Source: a bacterium (GTDB taxonomy: Bacteria > Patescibacteriota > Saccharimonadia > Saccharimonadales > UBA4665). From it: DNA of 64,000 nt. Positions 24,769 through 49,069 of the stretch are shown here, in pieces. Both the position numbers and the translations under genes were made by a program. The notes under the pieces are model-generated. The model did no database searches. It was not told the DNA's origin and saw nothing but the letters and a program-made list of their open reading frames with translations. The stretch covers positions 27,794 through 91,793 of the forward strand of contig JAJZMC010000007.1 in assembly GCA_021803105.1 (NCBI GenBank). Reading direction: 5' to 3'. How positions within the stretch are numbered: the stretch's first letter is position 1; each line of letters starts with the position of its first letter.

Positions 24769-24843
24769 TCCGGGGTAGCTCAGCGGTAGAGCGGGTGGCT
24801 GTTAACCACTAGGTCGCTGGTTCGAATCCAGTTCCCGGAGCCA
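24769..24843 (+). tRNA. tRNA-Asn (anticodon GTT), CCA encoded
   Basis: I folded the cloverleaf by hand. The acceptor pairs TCCGGGG with TCCCGGA. The D arm is GCTC/GAGC. The anticodon stem is GGTGG/CCACT with loop CTGTTAA. The T arm is GCTGG-TTCGAAT-CCAGT. The discriminator is G, followed by CCA. Confidence 0.93.
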
Positions 24844-24914
24844 AATAGAACGTAACTGACGATTTAGCCTGTCCTTACCTCTGTTATTTTGATCTTTTTT
24901 AGCGGTTATATTAG

Positions 24915-26417
24915 TCATTTTATGCCTCCTAGCAAATTATTAGTTTTAATAACATTTTGAGCAATAATTTTTGCAAAATTAGTATACTCAACAGATATAA
25001 ATTCTTGTTCATAGGTAATACGACTGAAAAGTTTGCTTATTATTAGTCGTTTTACTTCCGGTGGCTTATTTTGGTACAACTGAGCAGCTTTTTGAGATAA
25101 TTCTAATAAGAGTAGTTTCTGATCTAAGTCTTTACTAACTAATGTATCAACCTGGGCTAATTTCTGCTCAAATTCATTAATCTGATTAATTAAATTCTGG
25201 TGTTTATCTTTATATCTAGCCTGAGTTATCTCACCAGATAATTTATCATCATAAAGGCTTTCATCCATTCGATTTAGTCGATTAATCTGTGATTGAATTG
25301 AACTGATTAGCTGTGTACTGTTGTTAATGTTTTTAGCATAATGATCTTTCATAGATTCAGCTAACCAATCAATAATTTCAGCAGAAGGACATACTAACTG
25401 TTCCAGCATTTTCATAATTGCTTGCTCAACTTTATCTTCCCTAAGTAGTATTCGGCCCTTACAGACCTCTAAACTGCGCTGACAATAACCATAATATCGT
25501 TTCTTTTGAAGTTGCCAGGTAACAACACTGCCACAATACTTACAATAAATTAAATTTTTAAATACAGGATTATGTTTAGCACGTCTTAATGCCCGCTTAC
25601 CTTGTAATTTGTTTTGAACTTGTTCGAATAATTCTTTAGAAATAATCGGTACTTGAGCACCAGGATATTCCTTGCCGTCAAACCGAATAATGCCAATATA
25701 GTAAGGATTTCTTAAAATTCGATGAACTTGGCTCTTATGATACTCTCTGCCTTTATGATTTCTAATACCCATTATTTGAAGCTCCTTAGTAATCGATTGG
25801 ATAGATTGACTAGGATCAAGATAAAGTTTGAAAGCTCTCTCGATTAAAAACTTAGTTTCTTCATCTGGTTCATGAATTCGTTTACCGTTAACAATAACTG
25901 TTTTATAACCTGGAGGTGGTGGGGCAGGTACCCAACCCTGGGCTAATTTTTCAGCCCAACCTTTCATAGCTTCTTCGCGTAAATTATCGCTATATTTTTT
26001 AGCAACTGATAAATGAATATTCCACATAAACTTAACATCAGATTTAGCTTCTTTATGTAGTAATAAGTTTTCTTTAACGGCATGAAGTCGTCGATCAACG
26101 TCTTTTTCCAGCCAATCGTCAATTGCAATAGCATCACGAAAATTTCTAGTTAATCTATCAGTCTTTTCAACTGCCAGATGATAGATATTTTCTTTACTAA
26201 GATAGGTTAGTAGCTCATGAAAGACTTTTCGACTCTGTTCCTTAGAGGCAGTTTCGGCTATTTTAAATACTTTAATAACGTTAAAGTTTCTACTGTCACA
26301 ATAACTCTGCAAAAGCTTAAGCTGAGAATCAAGTGAATAGCCTTCATCTTCTTGAGCTTTAGAAGAAACCCTAGCTAAAATAACTGCACTAGAATGATCT
26401 TTGACTAGAGTTTTCAT
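24915..26417 (-). CDS. large serine recombinase (integrase)
   Basis: The N-terminal resolvase catalytic domain reads AVILARVSSKAQEDEGYSLDSQ, with the catalytic Ser in the RVSS context. It is followed by a recombinase domain, a Cys-rich zinc-ribbon region (CKYCGSVV...CQRSLEVC) and a C-terminal coiled coil. Size is 500 aa. Confidence 0.9.
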   Translation of the reverse strand: MKTLVKDHSSAVILARVSSKAQEDEGYSLDSQLKLLQSYCDSRNFNVIKVFKIAETASKEQSRKVFHELLTYLSKENIYHLAVEKTDRLTRNFRDAIAIDDWLEKDVDRRLHAVKENLLLHKEAKSDVKFMWNIHLSVAKKYSDNLREEAMKGWAEKLAQGWVPAPPPPGYKTVIVNGKRIHEPDEETKFLIERAFKLYLDPSQSIQSITKELQIMGIRNHKGREYHKSQVHRILRNPYYIGIIRFDGKEYPGAQVPIISKELFEQVQNKLQGKRALRRAKHNPVFKNLIYCKYCGSVVTWQLQKKRYYGYCQRSLEVCKGRILLREDKVEQAIMKMLEQLVCPSAEIIDWLAESMKDHYAKNINNSTQLISSIQSQINRLNRMDESLYDDKLSGEITQARYKDKHQNLINQINEFEQKLAQVDTLVSKDLDQKLLLLELSQKAAQLYQNKPPEVKRLIISKLFSRITYEQEFISVEYTNFAKIIAQNVIKTNNLLGGIK

Positions 26418-26589
26418 CTTGATTATTACTCCCTAAAGCATTAAAGAGGCTAATTAACGATTCACCAATCTCACTAGCTTCAGAAAAACTCAGTATTAAA
26501 TGATTCTGCTGCTCAATGATCTGTTGCAAAGATTGAGTTCTTGTTCTTATTTTAATGTCTTTTGTTAAAGTTATACTTTCTTGTTCCAT
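26389..26589 (-). CDS. small hypothetical protein upstream of the integrase (possible directionality/regulatory factor)
   Basis: A 66-aa ORF overlapping the integrase start by 29 nt, preceded by the palindromic operator. No motif recognised. Confidence 0.3.
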   Translation of the reverse strand: MEQESITLTKDIKIRTRTQSLQQIIEQQNHLILSFSEASEIGESLISLFNALGSNNQDENSSQRSF

Positions 26590-26629
26590 CTAGATACCCT
26601 CCTATTAACTATTCATACAAGTATAGTTT

Positions 26630-26649
26630 ACTATTCATACGTGAATAGT
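26630..26649. promoter_or_regulatory. palindromic operator-like site ACTATTCA-tacg-TGAATAGT, with an extra half-site at 26608-26615
   Basis: A perfect 8-bp inverted repeat with a 4-bp spacer, and a third direct copy of ACTATTCA 22 bp away. It lies between the XRE gene and the small ORF/integrase unit. Confidence 0.45.
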
Positions 26650-26692
26650 TCAAGTAGTTATACACAGGATTTTTATGTTATATAAAAACTTA

Positions 26693-26905
26693 CTAAAAAG
26701 GTAGAATATCTGATGATTTAATTTTTAGAGCCTTAGCTATCTTTTCGATCATTTCAAATTTTGGTTTTATTTCACCTCGTTCTAATCGGGCATAGTGATT
26801 AGGACTAATACCGGCTTTAGTGGCAACTTCAATTTGAGTTAAACCACTATTACTTCGAGCGGCTTTTAATTTTTGTCCAAAAAGCTTAATAGAACTATCA
26901 GCCAT
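26693..26905 (-). CDS. XRE-family helix-turn-helix transcriptional regulator
   Basis: It is 70 aa. LTQIEVATKAGISPNHYARLERGE is a canonical Cro/CI-type HTH. Confidence 0.9.
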   Translation of the reverse strand: MADSSIKLFGQKLKAARSNSGLTQIEVATKAGISPNHYARLERGEIKPKFEMIEKIAKALKIKSSDILPF

Positions 26906-26987
26906 ATACCGATATTTTACCAGATTTTACTATATTAAAATAATCACTCTTCTTGTATGATATTTTTTTTCAGCTATACTTCAAATA

Positions 26988-27368
26988 ATGGATTCAATAA
27001 TTGAAAATAACTTAATCAATCCCTATCATGTAATTAATTTTGCAGATTATTTATTTAAACCTCAAATTCAACCAATTGCTAAAGAAGATTATGTACTAGC
27101 AAACGCTAAATTAATAAAGACATTAGGGGCTTCCACTTGGCTAACAAAACTAATTGAAATTTTAAGCAGTGAAGTAGACGACAAAACTTATGCCGTTATA
27201 AACCCAATTGAATCTGTCCTGATATCTGCAAGACTCCAAGGACAACATAAAACTATTATTGATTTAAAAGATTGGCTAAGTGCCAACATTAAATTAATCA
27301 ACGAAATCGGGGCAGAGGAATGGCTTTATCTACTACTCAATATCCTCGAAACTGCTAGCAATAATTAA
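26988..27368 (+). CDS. hypothetical protein with an internal duplication
   Basis: It is 126 aa and divergent from the XRE gene. Two related segments are present: ANAKLIKTLGASTWLTKLIEILSSE and ANIKLINEIGAEEWLYLLLNILETA. Confidence 0.5.
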   Translation: MDSIIENNLINPYHVINFADYLFKPQIQPIAKEDYVLANAKLIKTLGASTWLTKLIEILSSEVDDKTYAVINPIESVLISARLQGQHKTIIDLKDWLSANIKLINEIGAEEWLYLLLNILETASNN

Positions 27369-27483
27369 GCCTAAATCATCTTTTTATCTACTGCTTAATA
27401 GATCGATCGATTTATCTATTTAGCCTTAATTTCTTCTCTGTTATTTGTATTTTTCCGTCTACCATTTTATTATATATATACAT

Positions 27484-28272
27484 ATGAACCCTATAACTAT
27501 TAAATCTTATAAGAAACTAAACAATAAACAAATAAAATTACTAAAGATCTTATATAAGTTTAGGTTTGGTACTAGTGAACTAATAGCACTATTTATGGAT
27601 CAATCAACAGTCTATACCAGAACCAGGCTTAATAGATTATTAGAACAAGGTTACATTGCTAAAAATTATGATAGCACTTATAAACTAAGAGGAATACCAG
27701 CGAATCACTACTTATTACCTAAAGCTATTAAATTACTTAAAGACAATGATGAACTAGATCATAAAGGACTTCATTTACTCTACTACAATAAACAAGCCTC
27801 AACTAGATTTATTAAACACTGGTTAGAGATATTTAAAATCTATCAAAAACTAAATGAATTGTATAAAAAGAAACTAGAATTCTTTACCTCTACCGAAGTA
27901 GCTGATCAAAATCAATTCCCTAAACCTGGTCTTGATAGTTATCTAAATATTAATGATTCTTATTACTTTCTAGACCTATTAGATAACTCAATGTCATATA
28001 CCCTACTTAAAAGAAAAGTTAATAAACATATTAAATGCTATGAATCAGAAAAACTAGAAGGTGATTACCCAACTATTCTACTTATTTGTTCTACTAAGGC
28101 AATCAAGACAATGATGACTAAATATTTAAACTCTGTTTTGAATAAAAAAGGAATTGATCAGTTAGAATTTCTAATAACCACGAAAGTGGAATTATTAACA
28201 CAAAAAGATAGTAAACAGGCTATTTGGAGGGAGGTAATGGAGAATGAGAACGAGGAGTTAGTTAGTCTTTAA
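27484..28272 (+). CDS. replication-relaxation family protein (winged-helix, plasmid/ICE-associated)
   Basis: The N-terminus LNNKQIKLLKILYKFRFGTSELIALFMDQSTVYTRTRLNRLLEQGYI matches the pattern I associate with the Replic_Relax family. I prefer the ATG at 27484 (MNPITIK...) to the track start at 27445. Confidence 0.55.
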   Translation: MNPITIKSYKKLNNKQIKLLKILYKFRFGTSELIALFMDQSTVYTRTRLNRLLEQGYIAKNYDSTYKLRGIPANHYLLPKAIKLLKDNDELDHKGLHLLYYNKQASTRFIKHWLEIFKIYQKLNELYKKKLEFFTSTEVADQNQFPKPGLDSYLNINDSYYFLDLLDNSMSYTLLKRKVNKHIKCYESEKLEGDYPTILLICSTKAIKTMMTKYLNSVLNKKGIDQLEFLITTKVELLTQKDSKQAIWREVMENENEELVSL

Positions 28273-28372
28273 GAGTAGTTTTAAGCCTTACTTAGCTGAG
28301 TTAGCATAAACATTGACAAAACAAATAAAAGTAGTATAATATATATCATAAACTAAACAAGGTAGATGAATT

Positions 28373-29011
28373 ATGTCAGAAATCAGTAATTACCCAGACT
28401 TTTATAAATCTACTGAGGGACAATCAAAGCTAGGTACGGAAGAACTAATTCAAACAAATCAAGCATTTAATGAACTATTCGATGATTTAATGTTAATAGA
28501 CATGGAAATTGTAAAAAGGTTTGAGAGTTTTAATGATCGTCCTGTTGCAAACTTACTAAAAAAGATAGTAGTAGATGGTCAAAAATATACCTTAAACTTA
28601 GAGGACAAAAGTCAAAGAGACCCGAAGAGTGAGACTCCCGATATAACTTGGAGAGATAGTGAAATAATAATTAGAGATATTAGTTTACAAAGATCTGATG
28701 GAGTATATGGACGAGAATATTGGAGCTATAGACTCGGTGCAGATGGTATTGTTAGACGCTGGGACGGCGGAGATATTACCGCTAAAACACGCAATGAACG
28801 AGAGCTTGGTATTAAAGAACCAAAAATACGTGGAAACGAAACACTAGATGAACTCGGAAAACTTGCACTTGCTGGCTTACAAAGAACTATCGACCAAATT
28901 CCTAATAGTAGACTAGAAGAAGATATGGGCTTAAATAACCAGCCTGTTACATTAGCCGAAATACAGGGCTTGCAAGACTTTTTGAATAGAGCTACAGATA
29001 TTCAACGATAA
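28373..29011 (+). CDS. hypothetical protein
   Basis: A 212-aa ORF in the island, preceded by a plausible RBS region. No motif recognised. Confidence 0.5.
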   Translation: MSEISNYPDFYKSTEGQSKLGTEELIQTNQAFNELFDDLMLIDMEIVKRFESFNDRPVANLLKKIVVDGQKYTLNLEDKSQRDPKSETPDITWRDSEIIIRDISLQRSDGVYGREYWSYRLGADGIVRRWDGGDITAKTRNERELGIKEPKIRGNETLDELGKLALAGLQRTIDQIPNSRLEEDMGLNNQPVTLAEIQGLQDFLNRATDIQR

Positions 29012-29190
29012 CGTGGTTACTTATCTTAACTGAAATCTCCTTCTAAACACTCTAGAGCCTTTTTAAGCCTTACTCAGGGCTATCGAACTTACTCTAAATT
29101 AGACTCGATAACTTCTAACCAATCTACTTTAGATAAACTAGTAGACAATAGATCACTAAATAGACTAGCTCCAAGATTAAGATCATACAT

Positions 29191-29361
29191 TTAACCTTCA
29201 ACTAATTCTTGAAGTCTTTCGGCTTTGTTACTATTTGATATATTTAATCCTAAAATATCAGTTAATAGTCGATGGTTATATTCATCATTATTTAGCCATA
29301 GACTAACTAACCATGTCTCTCGGTTACTCCAACCGTTATATGTTAATGTTAACTCACTCAT
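29191..29361 (-). CDS. small hypothetical protein (a motif I associate with mobile elements and phages)
   Basis: The ATG at 29361 is preceded by AGGAG with a 9-nt spacer. MSELTLTYNGWSNRETWLVSLWLNNDEY resembles a short motif I associate with phage/plasmid small proteins. This is from memory only, and no family name is claimed. Confidence 0.45.
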   Translation of the reverse strand: MSELTLTYNGWSNRETWLVSLWLNNDEYNHRLLTDILGLNISNSNKAERLQELVEG

Positions 29362-29571
29362 TTCTTTCTTCTCCTTTACTTTACGTAATAAGAGAAATAA
29401 GAACATCCTAAGGAGACGATAGTTACAAGGTGGAGACGAAGTACTACCTTGTAACTAGAGTTCAAGATGTAAAATGATGGATTTACGTAAAGAGAAGAAT
29501 ATTTAAGGATAAGAATATATGCTCTATTGCTATAATTAATGTACAATATTTATAATGATTAAGTATAAACA

Positions 29572-30417
29572 ATGTCTAGCAATACACTCATAGCTTTCAA
29601 AAATATCGTCGACCAACCTCTTACGTCAGTAAACCCCGCAATAATATCCAGTAACAGAATTAATAATGTCGGTGATGCGCTTGAAAGCTTTGTCAAAGAT
29701 GCATATACGGGCTTATTGAATTCCAAATTAAATCAGACACAAAAAGATGAAAAATATTCTGAGATTTTTTCTTGGCTCGGTAATTCCTCCAACCCGCCCG
29801 ATTCACTTCTAAGAGCCGGTGACGGTATAGAGGTAAAAAAAATAGAGTCTCTAACATCAGATATAGCACTTAATAGTTCCTTCCCAAAAAACAAACTACA
29901 TTCTGATGACTCGCGCGTAGCAGGTGGCGCTAAACGTGCAGAAAATTGGACAGAACGAGATATTGTATATATTATTGGTACTGTCTTTAGTCAAGAACTG
30001 AGTCGCTTATGGTTTATTTATGGGGATTGTTACGCCGCATCAAAAGAAACCTATGAACGCCTTATTGAAGTTATTGGTGATGGCGTAAGAACTATCCCGG
30101 ATATTGAATTTCATGAGACTAACGAACTAGCAAAAATAAAGAAAGTAGATCCTCTAGGTATAACCGATATGAGAGTACGGGGTATGTGGCATATTCAAAA
30201 TCCATCTCGTTTATATTCAAATCTTGTAACTTCGAGTCCACAAAGACAGTATTACTTACTTATGAGAGAAGAAAAATATCAAAGTTTTCCCGAAGCTGAT
30301 AGGAGCAGCTTAGATAAACTCCATGTAAATGGTTACAGTAATTCTATTATTAAAATTCGTAATCCAGATAATCCAGCACAACTAATGAAAGCACGGTTTA
30401 TTAAATATGAAATTTAA
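29572..30417 (+). CDS. type II restriction endonuclease (candidate NgoPII/HaeIII-isoschizomer, GGCC)
   Basis: A 281-aa ORF whose 3' end overlaps the start of the C5-methyltransferase gene by 11 nt, the classic R-M operon arrangement. The nuclease call rests on this context. The size is close to what I recall for R.NgoPII. Confidence 0.6.
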   Translation: MSSNTLIAFKNIVDQPLTSVNPAIISSNRINNVGDALESFVKDAYTGLLNSKLNQTQKDEKYSEIFSWLGNSSNPPDSLLRAGDGIEVKKIESLTSDIALNSSFPKNKLHSDDSRVAGGAKRAENWTERDIVYIIGTVFSQELSRLWFIYGDCYAASKETYERLIEVIGDGVRTIPDIEFHETNELAKIKKVDPLGITDMRVRGMWHIQNPSRLYSNLVTSSPQRQYYLLMREEKYQSFPEADRSSLDKLHVNGYSNSIIKIRNPDNPAQLMKARFIKYEI

Positions 30418-31474
30418 CATTACATCATTTTTTTCTGGAGCCGGTGGATTAGACACTGGTTTTCATAATCAAGGTTTTAATATTATCTGGGCAAATGAAT
30501 ATGACAAAACAATAACACCTACCCTTAGAAAAAATTTTCCATCAACAATTATTGACGACAGAAGTTTATTCAATATTCCATCTGAAGATATCCCTGATTC
30601 TCTTGGTATTATTGGTGGTCCGCCATGTCAAAGCTGGAGCGTTGCTGGAGCTGGTAAGGGTTTAAACGACGAAAGAGGTGGAGTATTTCTAGAATATATT
30701 CGAGTAATTAGAGACAAAAAACCTCTTTTTTTTCTAGCTGAGAATGTTGCTGGAATGTTATCCTCAAGACACCAAGATTCGTTAAAGTTAATTATTAGTG
30801 AATTCAATAAATTAGGTTATTATTTTACCTATAAACTACTAAATGTCAGGGATTATGGCGTTCCAGAGGATCGCAAAAGAGTCATATTTATTGGCTATAA
30901 TAAGAAATTAGGTAAATCTTTTACTTTTCCTAAACCTGTTTCAGATAATGATAAAAAAAATCTGAAAGACGCTATATGGGATTTAAAAGATAGTGCTAAA
31001 CCCGCAAAAGCTAAAAATAAGACTAATGGCAACAATTTAAAGGTTTTAAACCACGAATACATGACTGGAGGCTTTTCTACTATGTATATGTCTAGAAATA
31101 GAGTCAGAAACTGGGATGAACCATCTTTCACGATTCAAGCGGGTGGCAGACACGCCCCAATTCATCCTCAAGCACCAAAAATGATTAAGGTAGAGACCAA
31201 TGTTCAAAAGTTTGTTCCAGACAAAGAACATTTATATCGTCGACTATCAGTACGTGAAGTAGCAAGAATACAAACATTCCCAGACGATTTTGAGTTTATC
31301 TATACCGACGTAGCTGATGGATATAAAATGGTAGGTAATGCAGTACCGATAAAATTTGCTGAAGTTATTGCTAAACAAATCAAAAAAGATCTAGATGAAT
31401 ACTATAGTATAAAAGTTTCAAAGTTAGCTCCAAAAAAAATCATTAAAAAGTGTTACAAAACTGCTACTGTATAA
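30407..31474 (+). CDS. DNA (cytosine-5) methyltransferase, M.HaeIII/M.NgoPII-like
   Basis: All C5-MTase motifs are present: I FFSGAGGLDTGF, IV GGPPCQSWS, VI ENVAGML, VIII EDRKRVIFIGY, IX LSVREVARIQTFPDDF and X GNAVP. The variable region (IWDLKD...NKTNGN...NHEY...MSRNRVRNWDEPSFTIQAGGRHAPIHPQAPKM...KEHLYRRL) closely parallels M.HaeIII as I remember it. Confidence 0.92.
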   Translation: MKFNITSFFSGAGGLDTGFHNQGFNIIWANEYDKTITPTLRKNFPSTIIDDRSLFNIPSEDIPDSLGIIGGPPCQSWSVAGAGKGLNDERGGVFLEYIRVIRDKKPLFFLAENVAGMLSSRHQDSLKLIISEFNKLGYYFTYKLLNVRDYGVPEDRKRVIFIGYNKKLGKSFTFPKPVSDNDKKNLKDAIWDLKDSAKPAKAKNKTNGNNLKVLNHEYMTGGFSTMYMSRNRVRNWDEPSFTIQAGGRHAPIHPQAPKMIKVETNVQKFVPDKEHLYRRLSVREVARIQTFPDDFEFIYTDVADGYKMVGNAVPIKFAEVIAKQIKKDLDEYYSIKVSKLAPKKIIKKCYKTATV

Positions 31475-31757
31475 TAACTAAACATCCTAGTTTACTAAAA
31501 GTATACTCATATCCCGACTTCAACAATAAATACTACTTATTTAGGGTCTCTATAACTGAAGTTGGAGGTTATTTTACCAAATTATTATGCGGTATCTCGA
31601 TAATTACGTTAGTGTGCCGAAATTAAGCACATGCTATCTGTTAACAGCTCCAAAACAAGATCTTGTGGTCAAGTCAGGTAATTGTCTAACTACTATTGAT
31701 TAAGACAATTAATTAATCTAACATCTTAAACATTTCATTATAATGTAAAATGTATCT

Positions 31758-32216
31758 ATGGATAACAATGAAAAAACTGAACTTCTACTAAAAGCGGAAA
31801 ACTATGACAAATTTAAAGATGAAATCGGCAAAGAATATGTAAATAACATACGCTATTTAAAGACAGATCTCAGTTCATGGTTTAACGCATTAACGGCAGC
31901 TAGTTTTACAGTTGGTGCAATAGCAATCACAATAGGATCCGACAAGACTGTGAATTCTGGCATTTCTCATCCTGACTACTTTTGGTGGGGAACATTTTTA
32001 TTAATATTGGACGGAGTTCTGATATTCCTTCTTAAAAAACACGATATTGAAAACAATCTTAATGAAATGCCTCAATTAACCGAATCAAAAGCAGATTATT
32101 GGGAATTAAGAAACCTTACAATTGAAAAATCTAATGATAATAACATGAATAATAGTCGACTAGAAACTTTAGAAAAAAACGTAATTAGAGATTATGAAGA
32201 ACTTATTAAAAAATAG
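31758..32216 (+). CDS. hypothetical two-TM membrane protein
   Basis: It is 152 aa with two hydrophobic helices (FNALTAASFTVGAIAITIG and WWGTFLLILDGVLIFLL) and a charged C-terminus. A further ~59-codon hydrophobic ORF follows at ~32301-32480. Confidence 0.45.
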   Translation: MDNNEKTELLLKAENYDKFKDEIGKEYVNNIRYLKTDLSSWFNALTAASFTVGAIAITIGSDKTVNSGISHPDYFWWGTFLLILDGVLIFLLKKHDIENNLNEMPQLTESKADYWELRNLTIEKSNDNNMNNSRLETLEKNVIRDYEELIKK

Positions 32217-32558
32217 TCCTGGTATAAATGGATAAAAAAAGACAACCCAAGCGGCTACAACTGATATTGTTTTTGGCTTATTTTTATTCCCAATTATTCT
32301 TATGCTATCTCAAATAATACATAAACTACATATCTCAATGAATTTTTATACGCTAATATTACAGGCATTATTAATTCTCTATATAATTTATACTATCCGT
32401 GGTGGCATTATTGGAGTGAAAGCAATAAAAAAACAACAGGCAACTGAACAAAGAATAAAAAAACTAGTTATTAAAAAATAACAAATAATCTTATAAGTTA
32501 TTAATTAGATATTTAAAAAATTAATCATGATTTTTTGTTTGACAAAATTTTAACTCTT

Positions 32559-32987
32559 TTATTCTTTATCTATAAATTTCACAGTATAATTCTTCCTGGA
32601 ATTAACTTTCACTAAATCGGTCACATTCTTATTTCCATCATCCTCTAACAATAACGTTCTCCCAGACATTGGTTCTTGTGGTTCAATAGCGGTTATCCGT
32701 ATATAGAAGTTATAGCTTGGTAGATTAGTTATTTCTCCTTCTTCTAGGAATGGTTTAAATAAAGGAAGTATTAACTGTTCATCTAATGGACTCCCAGTTC
32801 TAAAGACCACTACTGTTCCAACATTAGCTAGAATTATATTAACCATTCTTTGTTCTTCTTGTTGAGAAGTAGATTGTTCAACCATAATTAGATATAACTT
32901 ATACTTTCTAGCCTCAGATAACATTTGCACAAATGAAGTAGTGGCAAAGTTCTGAAACTCATCAACATAGAGAAAGAAATAAAAATC
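32559..32987 (-). pseudogene. 3' remnant of a second VirD4/TraD-like ATPase gene (starts at the Walker B region)
   Basis: Hand translation from 32987 gives DFYFFLYVDEFQNFATTSFVQMLSEARKYKLYLIMVEQSTSQQEEQRMVNIILANVGTVVVFRTGSP...LLLEDDGN.... This is colinear with PFYLYVDEFQNFATISFVQLLSEARKYKLFLTMAEQSTAQQEEKRLVDIMLANVGTVICFRSGSP...VLLEDNGS of the 864-aa protein. No N-terminal two-thirds is present. Confidence 0.8.
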
Positions 32988-34838
32988 TTAATTAGTTAAT
33001 AAGAGCCTATTCATGAAATATTTTTCCAGTTCTTTGTCTTGAAAATAGACATAGCAACCCCTCATTCCCCTAGTCATTAAGACTTTATAGATGTTACGGA
33101 CTAGTCTATTCAACTCTTCGGGCTTATCTTTCATACCTTGTTTACCAGTTATATCTTTGTAATTGGTATAAGCGGTGCTAAATTGATTCTTATTTGGGTT
33201 AAAATTTAAATCATCCCCGATGATTACCCCAACATAGTCAAATTCCAATCCCTGTGATGTATGTATGCAACCAACTTGGTTAATACCTCGCTCATCAATC
33301 GCCCAGGTTGTGCCGACCTTACGCGAGTTCCAGGGCATCCTAAAATCGAATTCTGGTATGGTTATGTCTTCAACCTCGCCGTCTTGATTTCCACTGGAGG
33401 CCGATGTCCACATCCATGAATATCCAGCAAGCATACGGGCAGAGAAATTTTCAGATTTTTTATTTATCTCATCTCGCATGTCATTTGGATTGTTAAAAAT
33501 TCTAAAATCAAAGCTCTTTTTATCCCAACCATTGTAGTTCGCTGTTTCCTTTAATTGGAGAACATCATTAAGCCAATTAATATATCCTTCTGCTCCAGCA
33601 CATCTAAATTGTGCCGTTAGTTCCATTTCATATATTTTGGCGTTCTGATCCTCGGCAATTCTTTTAAGCTCTTTTATAGTGCCAATGTCTTCTGGTCTTA
33701 CTGCTTGATCATCGTCTATGAAAAAAATCGATGTTCTAGCCGCCTTAATTACATCCTCGACTTGGTTAGCACCTTTATACATGAATGCTCCCTTATTTTT
33801 GAGCCTATGCGCTTCATCAATAATCAGGGCATCAAATTCATCTTCTTTAGCATCATAAAATGAAGCTGATCCCTTGAATATATTGCGAATTCTCTGGGCT
33901 GAGTGTTCTTGAGTTAATCTTTTAACCAATGTATTTCTAAATGAAGAATTAGGAGCTACAAAAATTGCATTAAGATTATCTTTTAGCAAAGCGCTAATTA
34001 AATTTACTGAAACTACGGATTTACCAGTGCCAGGACCACCCTGAATAATGACGACTGATTTTTCTTTTTTATTGGCTATCAACCGAGCGGTCTCAAAGGC
34101 AACTTTTTGTTCATCTAATAATATATAATTCTGATTGCCCTTAAACATACTAGCGACATGATCAATGAGTTTTTTAGAAGGTCGAATCTTACCATTATTT
34201 ATTTCGTATAGGATATCCATTCCGTTGCCATATTTAACGTATTTGGCCAAAAAATCTTCGAGTTTTGATTGATCATCTCTGAAGTAAATTGGAGATTTAT
34301 CTATAACTGTTGTGTACTTATCTTCCAGTAATGGCTCGGGTTGTTTCTCTAGATAATTGTGTAAATAAGCACAGGAATAGGCACTTACGCTTCCGCTATA
34401 GATAGTCTCATTAAAATCAGACATAAAGTCTTTGTATCTCATCGCTTGATAACTGGGGTGAGTAACTACTCGTGGTGCACCCCCAGTATATGATTCTACA
34501 AGGCCATCACCATCAACCGAAGATGCTTTTTGCCACTGTTTTAACTCAACAATTACAAAGTTTTTATTGCCTTGATCATCATGTCCAGAGATTACAAAAT
34601 CTATTCTAAAATTAGTCAGAGGTATTTTGTATTCAATTAAAACCCCGCAGTCCTCAGCAACTTCAGATCGCTTTACTACCATTCCCATGCGTGGTAATGA
34701 ATTTTGATATGCGGTAACTTCACCAGGAGGTATGCTTCTTCCGAGTTTTTCTTGAAATGCCGTCTCGATCTGTGTCATGAGAGAGTTTGATTCAACATCC
34801 TCCATAAATCTTCTGGCGGTAGCTTCATAAACTATCAT
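32988..34838 (-). CDS. DUF2075/Schlafen-helicase-type P-loop NTPase with an N-terminal PD-(D/E)xK-like nuclease domain
   Basis: It is 616 aa. The N-terminal part has FRIDFVISGHDD...FVIVELKQW (a D...E-x-K pattern). Walker A is QGGPGTGKSV and Walker B is ALIIDEAHRL. The overall layout is what I associate with DUF2075 proteins. Its start overlaps the MazG-like stop (ATGA). Confidence 0.7.
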   Translation of the reverse strand: MIVYEATARRFMEDVESNSLMTQIETAFQEKLGRSIPPGEVTAYQNSLPRMGMVVKRSEVAEDCGVLIEYKIPLTNFRIDFVISGHDDQGNKNFVIVELKQWQKASSVDGDGLVESYTGGAPRVVTHPSYQAMRYKDFMSDFNETIYSGSVSAYSCAYLHNYLEKQPEPLLEDKYTTVIDKSPIYFRDDQSKLEDFLAKYVKYGNGMDILYEINNGKIRPSKKLIDHVASMFKGNQNYILLDEQKVAFETARLIANKKEKSVVIIQGGPGTGKSVVSVNLISALLKDNLNAIFVAPNSSFRNTLVKRLTQEHSAQRIRNIFKGSASFYDAKEDEFDALIIDEAHRLKNKGAFMYKGANQVEDVIKAARTSIFFIDDDQAVRPEDIGTIKELKRIAEDQNAKIYEMELTAQFRCAGAEGYINWLNDVLQLKETANYNGWDKKSFDFRIFNNPNDMRDEINKKSENFSARMLAGYSWMWTSASSGNQDGEVEDITIPEFDFRMPWNSRKVGTTWAIDERGINQVGCIHTSQGLEFDYVGVIIGDDLNFNPNKNQFSTAYTNYKDITGKQGMKDKPEELNRLVRNIYKVLMTRGMRGCYVYFQDKELEKYFMNRLLLTN

Positions 34839-35194
34839 TTGTTTTCAAGTTCCGTATATTTTAGGTGATTACCTTTAGCTTTATGGACCGGATATTTAAT
34901 TTCATTTTTAATCATTTTACTGTCTAATGCCTGCCTCAAATCTATGTCTAAGTCATTTGCTATTAATAATACCCAATACAAAACATCAGCCAGCTCATCC
35001 GCAATATCTTTTTTTTTGTTTTTTAAGTGTGCTTCTATCTCTTCATTATTCTTCCACTGAAAATGTTCTAAGAATTCAGTTGATTCTAATACGAGCGAGA
35101 TAGCCATATCTTTAGGATTATGGAATTGTTTCCAATTACGATCGTCTCGAAACTTAATTATTCTTTTAGCTAAATTTTCGAAATTGCTTTTCAT
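34835..35194 (-). CDS. MazG-like nucleoside triphosphate pyrophosphohydrolase (small all-alpha type)
   Basis: It is 119 aa. RDDRNWKQFHNPKDMAISLVLESTEFLEHFQW...ELADVLYWVLLIANDLDIDL matches the EExxE/D-bearing helices of the small MazG/YpjD/DCTPP1-like family. Confidence 0.75.
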   Translation of the reverse strand: MKSNFENLAKRIIKFRDDRNWKQFHNPKDMAISLVLESTEFLEHFQWKNNEEIEAHLKNKKKDIADELADVLYWVLLIANDLDIDLRQALDSKMIKNEIKYPVHKAKGNHLKYTELENK

Positions 35195-35448
35195 TGTTTT
35201 CCCTAAGTTGTATTTTATAAGTTTCCTGTCAATAATTATAATCCAAAATTAATATTTTTAATAAGTCTGGTCATCATTTTATTAAACTGAATTATTATCA
35301 GATAAACAAAAATATGTAACAAAATAGACGAGTATGGACTTATCAGACACACAAAATAAGCTAACTCGTCATCGTGATAACATTAATATATCAAAAAATA
35401 CTTGAAAATCAATAATTATATCAAACGTTACTTGTTTTTATCAACCGC

Positions 35449-38043
35449 TTACTTATTCTTGCTAAATTTACCCTTAGTTCTCTGATTATTTGATTTACGT
35501 TTTTTACTAGCTTGATAGTTTTTAATTGGTATATCACTAACAATTTTCTCTTCCGGCTGAACATATAATTTGGCATAACTATCTCTTGATGTCTCAACAA
35601 CTCTTCCAGCTACTTCTTCACTCCCATTATCTTCAAGTAAGACCGTCTCCCCAGACAAAGGTTCTAAGACACTAACAGCTCTCAGTCTCATATAAAAGCT
35701 ATAAGCTGGCAAGTTAGCTATATCACCTTGATCTAGTTGTGGTTTAAAGATAGGTAGTAATAGTTTTTCATCTTGTGGACTACCTGATCTAAAACAAATA
35801 ACTGTCCCAACGTTAGCTAGCATAATATCAACTAGTCTTTTTTCTTCTTGTTGAGCAGTCGATTGTTCTGCCATAGTAAGAAATAACTTATACTTTCTAG
35901 CTTCACTAAGTAATTGAACGAAACTAATTGTTGCAAAGTTTTGAAATTCATCAACATAAAGATAAAAAGGAGTCCTGCTGTCTTCTCCTAGTCTAGCTCG
36001 TCTAAGGGCAGATAACTGCAACTTAGCTAGAACACTAATACCAAGTAGAGTAGAGGTATCTTCTCCAATATGACCCTTAGCAAAGTTACAGATAAGTATC
36101 TTACTATCCTGAATAATATCATCAAAGTTAATAGTAGATTTAGCTTGTTCTAGTATTCTTCTACTAACAACTGATCTTTGGAATCTACCAAGCTTAGCAT
36201 TAACACCACTACTCATCTTTATTTTCTGGTAATCACCAGCACTATTAAATTCACCAGCCCAGAAGTCTTTTAAATCTTCATCAGTTAGTTTATCTACTAC
36301 TGATCTTCTAAACTTACTATTAGTGAGTAGCTTATAGACAGTAAATAAAGTAGCATCAGGAACAGTAAAAGCTGTATGAATAGTATTTCGAAGGAAATGT
36401 TCAATTCGATGACCACCATGATCATCCTCAGAAAATATTTTTCGAAAAACCGATATAACAGCTTCCGTGATAAAATCTTGTTCTAGTAGTAGTTCATCTT
36501 CACTTAAACCTTTTGGTTGTTCAAGCAAATTAAGTCCAATCGGATGAGCTATATCTCTTGGATTAAAGTAAATAACGTCTTTTATTCTACTCTCTGGAAT
36601 ATACTTTAGGATTGACTCGGCTAGATCACCATGAGGATCAATTACAGCCACACCTTTACCAGCTTTAATATCTGAAATAATTGCTGATTTAATCATAGTT
36701 GTTTTACCGTTACCACTACCACCTAAGATATAGACATGACGCTGTCTTTCTTCTTCTGTTAGTCCAACTAGATTATCATGATCATGGTAGTGATTTATCC
36801 CGTAGATAACATCAAAACTATCACTAGTTGATCTATTTTTAATAGCCAGTGGAACAGGTAAGACCTTAGATAATGATTTAACTACTTCATTACTATTACT
36901 ACCAAGACTTGGGAAGTGATAAATACTAGCTAACTCTTGGCTAGATAATATAGAAGAACTACTAGTTAAAATTGATGGTAATCGTCCACTATAAACATCC
37001 AGTTTATATTTCCAGGCAAAAGACTGACTAGTATTTTTTCTAATTATTATTTCCTGATAACCAGGAACATTAAATAAAGACAGAGCACTACTTAAACCTT
37101 TGATTCTTTGTTTGTAATTATCTCCAATAGCTAGGATTCTAATATCGACATAAAATAAGGGTTGATCTAATTTATCATAGATTGAAGTAATAACGTGTTT
37201 GGTAGTTGATGACAAACTTGGTGTTTTACTTGTTTTTAAGTATTTAGAATCTTTAAATATAAAGTGCAGAATAATATCTACTAATGTCACACTACTTACA
37301 AAAAGTAGTCTAATTAATCTAAATAGCCAGAAACCTTTACGTCGGTTAATACTACCGTCTTTACCAGCAAGTAGTTTTTTTCGGATCTTACTACTAGTCG
37401 AAACATCAACTGGTGAAGTAACTAGTTGCAGAGCAATGATCTCATCATCAGCTGGTGAAACCATTGATCCAGTAATAAAAGATAAGACATCATTAGTCTT
37501 AGTAGCTAGGGGATAAGCGTAGTGAGCTGACTGACAAAACTCAACTATTTGACAGTTAGAACTAGTTAAATCTCTAGGTAGATAATCTGGTATTTCTTTT
37601 ATCTGAATCTCTGGCATAAAAGATTCAAGTAACTGTTTAAACAAGAAAGAGTAGTCCTCATTTAGTCCAGCAATGAATCTAATACCATCACGTTTAGTTG
37701 ATACTAGTTCTAGTGATATAATCTTTCTTCGTCTTAGTAACTTATCTTTTAGCGAAACTTTATTAGTTAGTCCATAAATACTATTAAAAAACTTAGCTAC
37801 TTCATTAGTAGTTTTATTGTTACTATAAGGCGTCGTTAATTCTAAAAATATAACTGAGCCTTTTTTAAGATGAATGTAGTCTAGAGTATCTAATATTTTA
37901 TTAATGATACTAGCTAGTATTAATCTATATAAAATAATAAAAACAATAACAATAAAGGCAAAATTAATAAAAAAAGTCAAAAGAGAAGTACCAAAGATTT
38001 GCTGAAACAGATTGTAATGAATAACTGCTATAACTTCTAGCAT
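35449..38043 (-). CDS. VirD4/TraD(TrwB)-like type IV secretion coupling-protein-like P-loop ATPase
   Basis: It is 864 aa with N-terminal TM helices. Walker A is GGSGNGKTT, followed by AVIDPHGD, and Walker B is YLYVDEFQNF. It is colinear with the 1005-aa protein at 51812-54829. Confidence 0.7.
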   Translation of the reverse strand: MLEVIAVIHYNLFQQIFGTSLLTFFINFAFIVIVFIILYRLILASIINKILDTLDYIHLKKGSVIFLELTTPYSNNKTTNEVAKFFNSIYGLTNKVSLKDKLLRRRKIISLELVSTKRDGIRFIAGLNEDYSFLFKQLLESFMPEIQIKEIPDYLPRDLTSSNCQIVEFCQSAHYAYPLATKTNDVLSFITGSMVSPADDEIIALQLVTSPVDVSTSSKIRKKLLAGKDGSINRRKGFWLFRLIRLLFVSSVTLVDIILHFIFKDSKYLKTSKTPSLSSTTKHVITSIYDKLDQPLFYVDIRILAIGDNYKQRIKGLSSALSLFNVPGYQEIIIRKNTSQSFAWKYKLDVYSGRLPSILTSSSSILSSQELASIYHFPSLGSNSNEVVKSLSKVLPVPLAIKNRSTSDSFDVIYGINHYHDHDNLVGLTEEERQRHVYILGGSGNGKTTMIKSAIISDIKAGKGVAVIDPHGDLAESILKYIPESRIKDVIYFNPRDIAHPIGLNLLEQPKGLSEDELLLEQDFITEAVISVFRKIFSEDDHGGHRIEHFLRNTIHTAFTVPDATLFTVYKLLTNSKFRRSVVDKLTDEDLKDFWAGEFNSAGDYQKIKMSSGVNAKLGRFQRSVVSRRILEQAKSTINFDDIIQDSKILICNFAKGHIGEDTSTLLGISVLAKLQLSALRRARLGEDSRTPFYLYVDEFQNFATISFVQLLSEARKYKLFLTMAEQSTAQQEEKRLVDIMLANVGTVICFRSGSPQDEKLLLPIFKPQLDQGDIANLPAYSFYMRLRAVSVLEPLSGETVLLEDNGSEEVAGRVVETSRDSYAKLYVQPEEKIVSDIPIKNYQASKKRKSNNQRTKGKFSKNK

Positions 38044-38946
38044 GATTCCTCTTATTTCACCACTGTTTGGACGGTATTGTAACTGATTAGATTTATATTA
38101 GCAAATATATTTTAATAATTACTTATTTTTCAGTGTTACGAATGTATAATAATATTAGAAATAAAGTAAAATTATCTTACGAAATAAAATTTAAAGTACA
38201 TGAGCACTAAGCATTCTATCGCAGGAGTTAAAAGATAATGGGGCGCACTAAAGGATCAACGAATAAAGAGCGTCCGGTACCATGGCCTATGAATTTATCT
38301 AGGAAAGATCGGCTGGAGTTAATAGCTAATATTATAGTCGATAAGATCATTGAGATCAGAGAAACGGAGGCCCATTGCTAAAAAAAATTGAAGCTCAACA
38401 AAAAATATCAAAAAAGTCAGATTATAAATAACCATTAAACCATCTGTATAAATTAACATATAGGGTTTCTATTTTCTCACATACCTAAAAGACTCAGGTG
38501 TATATGAAACTTTCAAAGCATTCTAAAGTGCTACAATATACTTATGAATCAAAAAATATCTAAACCTAAACACCTTAGTAAACAGCAGGAAGAGCTTATC
38601 GATCAAATAACAAAAATATCAAAGATCCTGTGCGGTCAGTCAACGCTAAAGGAATGATAAGAGAAGCAATGAGTGGGAATAAAGAGCTAGCGGATATTAT
38701 ACATAGGATGATTGTCTCAGCGCTGAATGAACAAAAACAAACTATTTCGTAAAATTATTTACAGTAGATCAAACTATAGAATCAAAAGATAAACAATAGT
38801 TGTATAAATGTAGTCTAAACAAAGATTATAAGAACCTTTAAATAAATTTAATATTTTATTGATAACATAACAAAATTATAAATTAACGAATACTATACTT
38901 TATAAATAGTACAAATTACCTAAATAATCAAGACTTTTATGGCAAT

Positions 38947-40408
38947 TGTTGCTCGCCAATAGAAATGTCCGGATTTGCGTTCAATAGAAATGTCCAGTTT
39001 TTTGGTATGATCCTATTTAAAAAATAGGAGGATTTAATGCCAGAAATAATAAGGTTATCTCAAAAAGAACTGAACCAAGTTAGTGTCATAAAACAAGTAG
39101 CTGAAGGTAAACTCAAGCAAATAGAAGCAGCTGAAAGTTTAGATATAACAGACAGACAAATAAGAAGGCTACTCAATAAATATAGAGATGAAGGTAATAA
39201 AAGTTTTGCTAATAAATTAAGAGGCAGACCTAGTAATCACCAACTGGATAAGGGTTTTAAAGATAAAGTAATTAAGTTAGTTAAAAACAAATACCCAGAC
39301 TTTGGTCCAACCTTTGCAGCCGAAAAACTTAAGGAATTGGACGGTATTAGTATATCTGTATCTACTTTAAGACGCATAATGGTAAATAATGACGTTTGGA
39401 GAGAAAAAAGGCGTAAGAAACCTATTCACAGAACCAGGAGGCCTAGGCGTTCATGCTACGGAGATATGGAACAATTTGACGGCTCAAGCCATGACTGGTT
39501 TGAGGGTAGATATAACCATGGTGAATATACTACATTACTAGCTAGTATTGACGATGCTACGTCTATAGTTAATGCTTGGTTTAGTGACTATGAAGGGACT
39601 GTGCCTGTCATGAAGTTTTGGTGGGGGTATTTTGAGAAATATGGTAAACCTCACAGTATTTATCTAGATCGTCACAGCACATACAAAGTTAACTCTAAAA
39701 ATGCACTAGATAATGACAGCATCGTATCTGAATTTACTAGAGCCATGAAAGAATTAGGCGTACAGGTTATTAATGCAAATAGTCCTCAGGCTAAAGGTAG
39801 AATAGAAAGATTATTTGGAACCCTGCAAGACAGATTAGTAAAAGAGCTCCGCCTCGCAGGTATTAATAATCCTAATGATGCCAATAAATTTTTGCAAGCT
39901 TATTTACCTAGGTTTAATGCCAGGTTTAACGTTGAGGCTACCAGTAGCACAGATACTCACGTTATGTTATCTAAGCAGTACGATCTTAACTCAATCCTGT
40001 CTGTTCAGTCTGTACGCATTGTTAGTCGTGACTTTGTGGTTAGCTTTAAGAACCATTGGTATCAACTATCTAAAGATCAGCCTACTACAGTTTATCCTAA
40101 TAGTAAGGTAATCATTGAAGAGAGGTTAAATGGTAATTTATTGATACGTCTCAATAGCAAGTATCTAAACTACACTAAGCTAGACATTAAACCACGGAAA
40201 CCTAAAGTACTAGCCCCAGTTTTAGCCCCTAATCCTACTAAAAGACCTTATAAGCCATCAGCTACTCATCCGTGGAGAAGTATTAGGTTATTACCCTACA
40301 ATATTAGTAATAGACCGAATCAAACACCACCATCAAAGAAAATTACTTAAAAACGAATCCGGACATTTCTAAAAGTTTAAATCCGGACATTTCTACTGAA
40401 TTTCAACA
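38947..40408 (+). mobile_element. insertion sequence (rve/DDE transposase, TGT termini; IS481-like or ISNCY-like), copy 1
   Basis: The imperfect terminal inverted repeats both start with TGTTG. Each end carries two copies of the subterminal motif (A/T)AGAAATGTCC(G/A)G. These sit at 38959-38975 and 38984-38998 on the left, with the mirrored copies at 40357-40372 and 40381-40396. It has a single transposase ORF. No target-site duplication is visible. Confidence 0.8.
39037..40350 (+). CDS. IS transposase (N-terminal HTH + integrase-core DDE domain)
   Basis: It is 437 aa and preceded by AGGAGG. The HTH reads ITDRQIRRLLNKYR. Catalytic-core-like segments are MEQFDGSSHDW, IYLDRHSTYK and ANSPQAKGRIERLFGTLQDRLVKELR. 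By eye it is about 65-70% identical to the ORF at 45312-46637. Confidence 0.9.
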   Translation: MPEIIRLSQKELNQVSVIKQVAEGKLKQIEAAESLDITDRQIRRLLNKYRDEGNKSFANKLRGRPSNHQLDKGFKDKVIKLVKNKYPDFGPTFAAEKLKELDGISISVSTLRRIMVNNDVWREKRRKKPIHRTRRPRRSCYGDMEQFDGSSHDWFEGRYNHGEYTTLLASIDDATSIVNAWFSDYEGTVPVMKFWWGYFEKYGKPHSIYLDRHSTYKVNSKNALDNDSIVSEFTRAMKELGVQVINANSPQAKGRIERLFGTLQDRLVKELRLAGINNPNDANKFLQAYLPRFNARFNVEATSSTDTHVMLSKQYDLNSILSVQSVRIVSRDFVVSFKNHWYQLSKDQPTTVYPNSKVIIEERLNGNLLIRLNSKYLNYTKLDIKPRKPKVLAPVLAPNPTKRPYKPSATHPWRSIRLLPYNISNRPNQTPPSKKIT

Positions 40409-40494
40409 GGTTAGGGGTTATATTTAGGGGTTATATTTATTCTAATTAATTGAATTATCCCAAAAAGTAAGTTATTATTTAATAATATTTTTGC

Positions 40495-48707: not shown

Positions 48708-49064
48708 GCCAGATTATTGACCGATCGCGTACTTTTAAATACGAGGAAAGTCCGGGCAGCAAAGAGAGTGATAGTCGTTAACGACGACCAGATGTGAATC
48801 TAGGGAAAGTGCCACAGAGACAATACTATCGTTATTTTGACGGTAAAGGTGAAAAGAGCGGTGTAAAAGACCGTAGTTTATATTGGTGACATTATAAAGA
48901 GGTAAACCCTATCAGCTGCAAGGAGATAAGTTTTAAGTTTTTACTTTAGTTTCTCGCTAAACTTATCGATTTATCCGCTTGAATTTATGAGTAATTATAA
49001 ATCTAGATAGATGATCGGTAATCTTATTTTAAGATTACAGAACCCGGCTTATAGATAATCTGGC
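48708..49064 (+). ncRNA. rnpB: RNase P RNA (bacterial type A)
   Basis: The universally conserved P4 strands GAGGAAAGTCCGGGC (~48744) and ACAGAACCCGGCTTA (~49038) are present. The terminal P1 pairs GCCAGATTAT (48708-48717) with ATAATCTGGC (49055-49064). AGGGAAAGTGCCACAGA is also conserved. Confidence 0.92.
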
Positions 49065-49069
49065 TATTA

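Follow-up and report, generated by a model that had tools for sequence, protein, structure and literature searches.

What do two overlapping genes in a mobile island of a Saccharimonadales bacterium do together? They occupy positions 32988-35194, on the minus strand, of the stretch of contig JAJZMC010000007.1 analysed here (64,000 nucleotides in full, hereafter the window) and encode a 119-aa MazG-like protein and a 616-aa protein with a nuclease-like domain in front of a helicase. The first-pass annotation of this DNA had put them forward as a candidate anti-phage defence system. We find that the two genes belong together as a single functional unit, conserved and mobile, whose three catalytic centres are intact. 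This unit is most likely an operon for defence against phages or other mobile genetic elements (MGEs), of the type known from the nuclease-helicase immunity protein Nhi, and we give this reading slightly better than an even chance.

Two genes, one conserved unit

The MazG-like gene comes first, and the start codon of the nuclease-helicase gene overlaps its stop codon in an ATGA that can be read directly from the sequence, just as the first-pass annotation had noted. A search for terminator-like sites on the coding strand of the cassette, the junction between the two genes included, found none, and an Rfam scan of the cassette gave no match. The layout points to co-transcription of both genes. 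The best sigma-70-like promoter candidate of the region is situated in the 254-bp gap between the gene for a VirD4-like ATPase and the MazG-like gene; it is a consensus match only, and promoter-like sites in this region are no commoner than in shuffled sequence.

A scan of the genome collection with the single protein returned one close relative, and an alignment-based scan of metagenomes was used instead. The best 80 metagenome relatives of the large protein (full length, 39-90% identity) were chosen with their neighbours ignored, and a MazG-like partner was sought by a MazG profile over all open reading frames (ORFs) of these 80 loci. In four loci the upstream sequence is too short for a verdict. 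Of the 76 that can be evaluated, 66 carry a MazG-like gene; the other ten do without one, their upstream sequence being sufficient to tell. In 53 loci the gene immediately precedes the nuclease-helicase gene on the same strand, overlapping it in 17 of them (mostly by the identical 4 nt) and separated from it by a gap of ≤ 50 nt in 36. It is found farther upstream in eight loci, with a gap of 51-804 nt and usually an inserted gene, and downstream in five. No locus of the 80 contains a second MazG-like ORF.

The first-pass annotation had stated beforehand that the proposal would fall if the two families did not co-occur beyond chance. They do, as the 66 of 76 loci show, and they co-evolve: the identity matrices of both proteins correlate with a Mantel r of 0.49, and none of 999 permutations reached this value. 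The catalytic residues of both proteins are kept in 63-64 of 64 pairs. Judged by their motifs, all three catalytic centres are intact, namely the nuclease motifs, the motifs of a superfamily 1B (SF1B) helicase and the EExxE/ExxD site of the pyrophosphatase. Six MazG-like homologs with 64-100% identity were inspected on long contigs; four are paired and two are solitary among housekeeping genes. As the large protein is mostly paired and MazG-like homologs are also found alone, the dependence seems to be one-sided: the nuclease-helicase requires the pyrophosphatase, but not the reverse.

Predicted activities of the two proteins

Residues 260-601 of the large protein match PF09848 (SLFN-g3_helicase/DUF2075) with 326.2 bits against a cut-off of 24, and the model is aligned in full (positions 1-354 of 354). 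This match confirms the DUF2075-type P-loop NTPase of the first-pass annotation, whose quoted motifs (IDFVI...VIVELKQW, GGPGTGKS and IIDEAH) are all found in the protein. The Walker A motif at residues 267-274 (GGPGTGKS) and the DEAH at residues 341-344 are invariant among the relatives, and the helicase motifs taken together, which further comprise Q410/R412, T527-Q529-G530 and R590, are kept in 62-64 of 64 of them. An AlphaFold model of the whole protein, made from 35 homologs, has a predicted local distance difference test score (pLDDT) of 84 and a predicted template modelling score (pTM) of 0.84. Its best Foldseek matches are SLFN11, RecD, Dna2, RecD2, Dda and Upf1, with a probability of 1.00 for each of the last five. 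Hence, to judge from the modelled fold, the helicase part of the protein belongs to SF1B.

The N-terminal domain (residues 1-235) gave no Pfam match above the cut-off. Its residues E69, D80, E98-x-K100 and Q131xxxY135 are invariant in 64 of 64 diverse relatives, and in a model of the domain alone (pLDDT 89) an alpha-beta-beta-beta core holds the first three of these elements and is followed by the fourth. The weak Pfam matches all fall to PD-(D/E)xK families (NERD, Endonuc_Holl, PDDEXK_13 and HSDR_N_2); the one to NERD was seen in 4 of 25 family members and is weak at its best (6e-4). The top fold matches are again PD-(D/E)xK nucleases (Cap4, EcoT38I, EndoMS and Can2), all of them non-significant, and no significant structural match was found in the PDB (best E 0.14) or in BFVD. 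A profile search of PDB sequences with the domain gave 0 matches, and the fold search with the whole protein was swamped by the helicase part. A PD-(D/E)xK nuclease is the likely but not proven identity of residues 1-235. The invariant motifs, the topology and the consistent weak matches uphold the PD-(D/E)xK-like domain proposed earlier, which the structural searches leave without a significant match.

An exhaustive profile search with the N-terminal domain retrieved 2,277 representatives among 1.84 billion, 313 of them at E ≤ 1e-30, and the family amounts to ~2,300 sequence clusters at 50% identity. The domain is always N-terminal in its proteins, whose full-length sizes are ~620-650 aa or ~780-815 aa. 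Long relatives of 700-880 aa were seen at 21 of 86 loci, about a quarter, and a Peptidase_S24 domain was found at the C-terminus of each of the ten long variants that were tested. In one further arrangement (locus L025), a free-standing S24 gene lies between the MazG-like and nuclease-helicase genes. These S24 modules retain an AAG/ACG resembling the LexA cleavage site, the GxSM serine and a downstream lysine. Because the Ala-Gly site and the Ser/Lys dyad are kept, we propose that self-cleavage stimulated by RecA on single-stranded DNA (ssDNA) may serve as a control step in the lineages that bear the module, as their sequences suggest. The 616-aa window protein itself contains no S24 module according to Pfam.

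The 119-aa protein matches the MazG-like family PF12643 with 62.7 bits (cut-off 27) and PF03819 only weakly (27.6 bits). Among PDB sequences, its nearest solved relatives are mouse RS21-C6 and human DCTPP1 (E 9e-20), the next one is an archaeal 118-aa pyrophosphatase, and proteins of the classical MazG and YpjD type are far weaker. The metal-binding residues E37, E40, E67 and D70 (EExxE...ExxD) are present and are kept in 63-64 of 64 partner proteins. The substrate pocket of DCTPP1 consists of H38, W47, E63, E66, W73, E95, D98 and Y102, and the enzyme prefers deoxycytidine triphosphate (dCTP) and 5-methyl- or 5-halo-dCTP over other nucleotides (PMC4491611). Six of these eight residues are identical in the small protein and one is replaced conservatively; Y102 is Trp in the window protein and Tyr in 51 of 64 partners.

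The small protein is thus predicted to be a single-domain, all-alpha, DCTPP1-like house-cleaning nucleoside triphosphate (NTP) pyrophosphohydrolase. The earlier description as a MazG-like NTP pyrophosphohydrolase is correct as regards the family PF12643, but not if it is taken to mean classical MazG. A MazG of the E. coli type, which is linked to ppGpp and MazEF and has tandem domains, ~260 aa and PF03819, was ruled out, as the protein has one domain and 119 aa and is closest to DCTPP1. We also set aside a role in the metabolism of the alarmone ppGpp, because the protein is DCTPP1-like rather than a classical MazG; the suggestion that it alters the alarmone pool found no support. A role involving dCTP or modified dCTP is, from its relationships, more likely than an alarmone role.

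Distribution, neighbours and host island

The pair occurs in bacteria of the candidate phyla radiation (CPR), in Bacillota and Gammaproteobacteria, in one haloarchaeon and on a few viral contigs. The close homologs within the CPR belong to Paceibacteria, Saccharibacteria and Gottesmanbacteria. Annotated pairs are found on plasmids of Priestia aryabhattai (NZ_CP083270; 51.6% identity) and of the archaeon Halalkalicoccus jeotgali, and further pairs were detected on a Halomonas replicon (NZ_CP040452), in a Microcystis phage record and on two IMG/VR contigs. That the pair is typically phage-borne was considered and rejected: the 2.9 million viral contigs of IMG/VR contain only 3 full-length relatives of the large protein and the GenBank phage records 1, and no specific PHROG family was matched by it.

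The neighbourhoods of the pair are rich in defence genes, which answers, in qualitative terms, the question raised by the first-pass annotation about its location. The Priestia operon is flanked by an ABC-3C system, a restriction endonuclease, MutT and a type I restriction-modification (R-M) system, and the gene that overlaps the start of its MazG-like gene combines McrB-N, a modified-cytosine reader, with an HNH nuclease. Among 150 flanking proteins, the commonest families are SauUSI-like type IV methyl-directed restriction enzymes (ResIII-DUF3427-PLDc) and AriA/AAA_15/21 ATPases, together with Fic/SoFic, PbeA, R-M methylases and nucleases, AbiL, WYL and RadC. A fixed third gene can be ruled out, since 158 Pfam families are spread over these 150 neighbours and the commonest is found in only 5 proteins. 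Genes inserted between the two partners encode Fic, HEPN_AbiU2, HNH or S24 proteins. PF09848 is on the standard list of abortive infection (Abi) Pfam families, and DUF2075 NTPases have been described next to DUF3427-DUF3883 modification-dependent enzymes (Lutz et al. 2019, New England Biolabs).

Several individual loci deserve mention. In a Saccharibacteria locus (L002, 9852-13679), the pair is preceded by an AddA-like UvrD/PD-(D/E)xK helicase-nuclease and followed without gaps by an AAA_15/AAA_23 ATPase gene, and then by a DUF2130 gene and an HNH gene; the whole stretch could represent a more extensive, composite locus for defence or repair. The Hymenobacter canadensis plasmid NZ_CP114769 (L114, 6001-9987) has two tandem DUF2075 paralogs and no MazG-like gene; the genes that immediately precede the paralogs encode a BPTD_3080-family restriction endonuclease, a DNA methyltransferase and a DUF4747 protein. 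On the Streptomyces plasmid NZ_CP109577 (L092, 4734-7812), a DUF3883 (NOV_C) gene immediately precedes the gene for a DUF2075 relative (32% identity) and MazG is absent, which fits the DUF3883-DUF2075 linkage of Lutz et al. 2019. The Bacillus thuringiensis plasmid pKK1 (L091, 4202-7794) carries a relative of ~25% identity after genes for an NTP pyrophosphohydrolase and an HNH endonuclease. We rejected this pyrophosphohydrolase as an ortholog of the small protein, as it is merely analogous and of the same superfamily; pKK1 hints that the link to a nucleotide hydrolase recurs at the superfamily level. Bacillus plasmid records with similar 'DNA/RNA helicase domain' proteins number 67. Finally, two near-identical contigs (L108, 3854-5601, and L109, 3854-5707) differ in that the nuclease-helicase is intact (617 aa) in one, whereas the other has it in two pieces of 534 and 48 aa; either the gene was inactivated by a natural mutation or the assembly is at fault.

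In the window, the cassette is part of an island at ~24.85-40.45 kb, an integrated mobile element of ~15.6 kb (24844-40494) between SmpB/tRNA-Asn and tRNA-Val/threonyl-tRNA synthetase (ThrRS). Table 1 lists its features. Both statements of the first-pass annotation about the surroundings proved right: the cassette lies in an accessory island beside an R-M system, here of the NgoPII type, and its 3' end abuts a truncated gene, here the remnant of a VirD4-like gene. This remnant is 61% identical in amino acids, and 75% in nucleotides, to residues 693-831 of the intact gene on the other side of the cassette. The stop codon of the large gene is in frame with the remnant and the homology to the intact gene begins within about three codons (32985-32990), so that the junction is exact, with one stop codon between the two frames. 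As the remnant starts right after this stop codon and matches the intact gene, the sequence suggests that the cassette arrived by recombination within a coupling-ATPase gene. An identical element with the same gene order is present in several metagenome samples (L093-L098). A search for attachment-site repeats of the island gave none that were convincing, only similarity of one tRNA to the other.

Table 1. Features of the cassette and of the island that carries it, in window coordinates
Feature	Coordinates	Strand	Basis or remark
SmpB, tRNA-Asn	tRNA 24769-24843		core genome
Large serine recombinase	24915-26417		
Replic_Relax protein	27445-28272		
NgoPII-type endonuclease and C5 methylase	29572-31474		R-M system
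Truncated VirD4/TraG-like coupling ATPase, 3' remnant	32559-32984	-	141 codons; context, outside the system
Nuclease-helicase/MazG-like cassette	32988-35194	-	
Nuclease-helicase gene, 616 aa	32988..34838	-	ORF; PF09848
Linker and DUF2075/SLFN-group-3 SF1B helicase domain, residues 236-616 and stop codon	32988..34133	-	PF09848, Foldseek
N-terminal nuclease domain (likely), residues 1-235, PD-(D/E)xK type, NERD-like	34134..34838	-	invariant motifs, domain model, weak matches, hhalign
ATGA start/stop overlap	34835..34838	-	large-gene ATG over small-gene TGA, read from sequence
MazG-like gene, 119 aa	34835..35194	-	ORF; PF12643
Sigma-70-like promoter candidate, best of region	35415..35444	-	TTGATA-18-TATAAT, 11/12 consensus matches, extended -10 TG
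Intact VirD4/TraG-like ATPase	35449-38043		
Insertion sequence (IS) element	38957-40398		20-nt inverted repeats at 38957-38976 and 40379-40398; HTH_32/rve transposase 39037-40350; next to tRNA-Val
tRNA-Val, then ThrRS	tRNA from 40495		core genome

Outside the island, a second transposase of the family of this IS element is encoded at 45312-46637 on the minus strand. The cumulative GC skew of the window has its minimum at ~36000-39000, where the predominant gene strand turns from minus to plus, and a replication origin could lie near the island. An ORF at 47978-48679, which immediately precedes the gene for the bacterial RNase P RNA (48709-49067), is an unusual fusion of Pterin_4a and RNase H/RVT_3 domains.

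The case for defence and its relation to known systems

A role of the pair in defence against phages or other mobile DNA is, by analogy with its relatives, fairly probable. Besides the co-occurrence and the genomic context, the argument draws on Nhi-like, a verified defence protein of Bacillus cereus FSL H8-0482 (Millman et al. 2022). An hhalign comparison aligned the family profile of the large protein with it at a probability of 86% and E 4.8e-6 over 264 colinear columns, within the first 399 of 611 Nhi-like residues, and the alignment runs from the nuclease motifs (E...D...ExK...QxxxY) to Walker B. As the large protein shares the layout of Nhi and Nhi-like as well as this remote colinear homology, what is new is limited to the two-gene form: the pair would be a two-gene version of Nhi-type immunity rather than a new kind of system.

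Nhi and Nhi-like serve as the model for the large protein: it would be the effector, whose SF1B motor would load on replication intermediates, foreign or aberrant, for the N-terminal nuclease to degrade. The small protein would hydrolyse dCTP-type nucleotides, probably base-modified ones, to the monophosphate, a substrate that we infer from the relationship to DCTPP1 and from the recurrent linkage to modified-cytosine readers and restriction enzymes. Such hydrolysis may starve phages that build modified DNA; alternatively, it may keep the nucleotides of degraded foreign DNA out of the host DNA. Where S24 modules are present, RecA-ssDNA filaments formed upon DNA damage or phage replication could license the effector through self-cleavage. 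We put forward with lower confidence both the Nhi-type attack on replication intermediates and, on the part of the pyrophosphatase, the removal of dCTP-type nucleotides that would starve phages or block re-incorporation. The full scheme, an unrecognised immune module of bacteria and archaea in which modified dCTP falls to a DCTPP1-like enzyme and foreign DNA, as it replicates, to an SLFN-type nuclease-helicase that in many lineages is under a RecA/S24 licence, is unlikely to hold in every part.

A number of observations weigh against this interpretation. The proposal of an anti-phage system, favoured as it is by co-occurrence, context and the Nhi-like relation, is still a reading of context and remote homology. 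BLASTP aligned the large protein with the first 399 residues of Nhi-like in the Walker region only (E 0.001), a remote similarity. The PADLOC models of Nhi and AbiO (PDLC02372 and PDLC02350) match residues 235-465 only, with E values of 4e-15 and 5e-17; the match covers model positions ~174-375 of ~470, which is the first helicase lobe, and leaves the nuclease domain and the C-terminal lobe unmatched, and more distant relatives are matched by these models in an equally partial way. MazG is missing not only from the ten evaluable loci but also from the Methanosphaera and Hymenobacter plasmid copies. Close MazG-like homologs are also solitary, so the enzyme is not specific to defence. Sequence identity within CPR bacteria is 58-84%, high for a defence gene. 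The census of flanking genes has no matched control set, and the enrichment it indicates is therefore qualitative only; some loci have repair-type neighbours (AddA-like, HhH-GPD glycosylase, MutT, NucS and RadC). Finally, His38 of DCTPP1, the predicted cytosine contact, corresponds to I/L/V here. As this residue is not conserved, the cytosine specificity of the small protein is uncertain, plausible but not assured.

The main rival explanation is a module for DNA damage or replication stress, in which the pyrophosphatase would clean the pool of deoxynucleoside triphosphates (dNTPs), the nuclease-helicase would process stalled forks or damaged DNA, and S24 would provide the tie to the SOS response, in the manner of human DCTPP1 and SLFN11 in genome maintenance. 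The S24 (LexA/UmuD-like) domains, fused or adjacent in about a quarter of the relatives, support such a module, as do the repair-type neighbours, the solitary MazG-like homologs in housekeeping contexts and the strong purifying selection. However, the distribution across bacteria and archaea is patchy, and most genomes are without the pair, as the modest size of the family shows. The pair is carried by plasmids, by an integrated element and by a few viral contigs; its contexts vary, restriction and Abi-type genes are its commonest neighbours, and it has no fixed position beside core repair genes. We therefore regard a damage-response role as unlikely. A lethal nuclease-helicase held in check by MazG, which would bind it or destroy its nucleotide activator until a phage releases the effector and the infection is aborted, is less probable again. 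The conserved catalytic residues of MazG indicate that its enzyme activity, and not binding alone, is under selection, ~13% of the evaluable loci have no MazG, and the verified Nhi-like works as a single gene. Such a toxin-antitoxin-like module would nevertheless explain why MazG is almost always upstream, overlapping or close, and why the nuclease-helicase is seldom seen without MazG whereas MazG-like genes are also solitary; moreover, one Staphylococcus homolog of Nhi is toxic on expression (Bari et al. 2022).

The pair might also serve the mobile element itself, helping its carrier, be it an integrative and conjugative element (ICE), a plasmid or a phage, to replicate and establish or to exclude rivals, with no protection of the host from phages. 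The cassette of the window is indeed directly downstream of the element's VirD4-like ATPase gene, the element recurs in several samples, copies are found on plasmids and in the Microcystis phage record, and phages often carry MazG-type genes (PHROG pyrophosphatase family). Nonetheless, this selfish function has little to recommend it, given the scarcity of the large protein on viral contigs, its want of a specific PHROG family and the many chromosomal copies with no recognisable element genes nearby; besides, the exclusion of rival elements would itself count as defence. Coincidental adjacency of two unrelated genes has a single point in its favour, the solitary MazG-like genes, and is practically dismissed by the co-evolution of the genes and by the pairing in 66 of 76 independent loci, which holds across bacteria and archaea and for large proteins as little as 39% identical.

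If the defence reading is right and the pair is immune in function, a widespread two-gene member is added to the Nhi-type nuclease-helicase defences, and many bacterial and archaeal DCTPP1-like genes annotated as 'nucleotide pyrophosphohydrolase' gain a first biological role. The S24 fusions lead to the testable idea that infection is sensed via RecA-ssDNA filaments. Should the full scheme above hold, a prokaryotic operon would unite relatives of two human genome guardians, DCTPP1 and the SLFN11 helicase. Because both proteins have genome-protecting relatives in humans, the mechanism could inform the biology of SLFN11 and DCTPP1. Also of note is that the cassette is among the few recognisable defence candidates in CPR bacteria (Patescibacteria), whose phage biology is poorly known.

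How, then, does the pair compare with what has been described? Neither the MazG partner nor the pair has a model in PADLOC 2.0.0, whose matches to the large protein are weak and partial, and the searchable literature contains no paper that joins DUF2075 or Nhi with MazG or 'nucleotide pyrophosphohydrolase'. The statement of the first-pass annotation that no described system is built from this pair therefore stands for the combination, but not for the large protein, which has the layout of Nhi and is no orphan. Nhi-like is the closest in design, with what appears to be the same PD-(D/E)xK and DUF2075 layout in ~610 aa, and it too is found in defence islands. It was cloned and is functional as a single gene, whereas the window family is linked to MazG in most loci, and because pairwise similarity is confined to the Walker region, we treat the two as separate families. 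In Nhi itself (SERP2475 of Staphylococcus epidermidis), nuclease and helicase are both needed and the accumulation of phage DNA is blocked (Bari et al. 2022). Nhi and the lactococcal AbiO resemble the window protein, with its likely nuclease, in having a nuclease and an SF1B/DUF2075 helicase in one polypeptide; Nhi differs in an extra C-terminal Glyas_Bleomycin-R domain and in having no MazG partner. PDC-S41, an unvalidated single-gene candidate of PADLOC, gives a weak partial match to the N-terminal region and the C-terminal lobe (E 3e-21 for L039, a human-gut relative fused to S24, and 2e-14 for the window protein), but it is defined as one gene without a MazG component.

Beyond these systems, the likeness is one of parts. 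SLFN11 and the other group-3 Schlafens have a helicase of the same Pfam family, and SLFN11 is the top structural match (E 6e-11). SLFN11 also responds to ssDNA at forks under stress, and the LexA-like S24 modules of the relatives offer a parallel. The effector domain of the window protein, however, appears to be of the PD-(D/E)xK DNase type and not a Schlafen tRNase core, and it is that RNase domain that is at issue in the bacterial Schlafen defence systems described in 2025-26. Proteins of the Dna2/RecD type likewise have a PD-(D/E)xK nuclease with QxxxY N-terminal to an SF1B helicase, and Dna2, RecD and RecD2 are among the fold matches. The match is at the level of the fold only, with 10-14% identity, and the window protein has no Fe-S cluster cysteine motif; moreover, its gene is accessory and mobile and not a core gene of replication or repair. 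The small protein shares with DCTPP1/RS21-C6 the single-domain, all-alpha pyrophosphatase architecture, the metal-binding Glu and Asp residues and two pocket Trp residues. DCTPP1 has 170 aa and His38, in contrast to the 119 aa and the I/L/V of the window protein, which, unlike DCTPP1, is linked in an operon to a nuclease-helicase.

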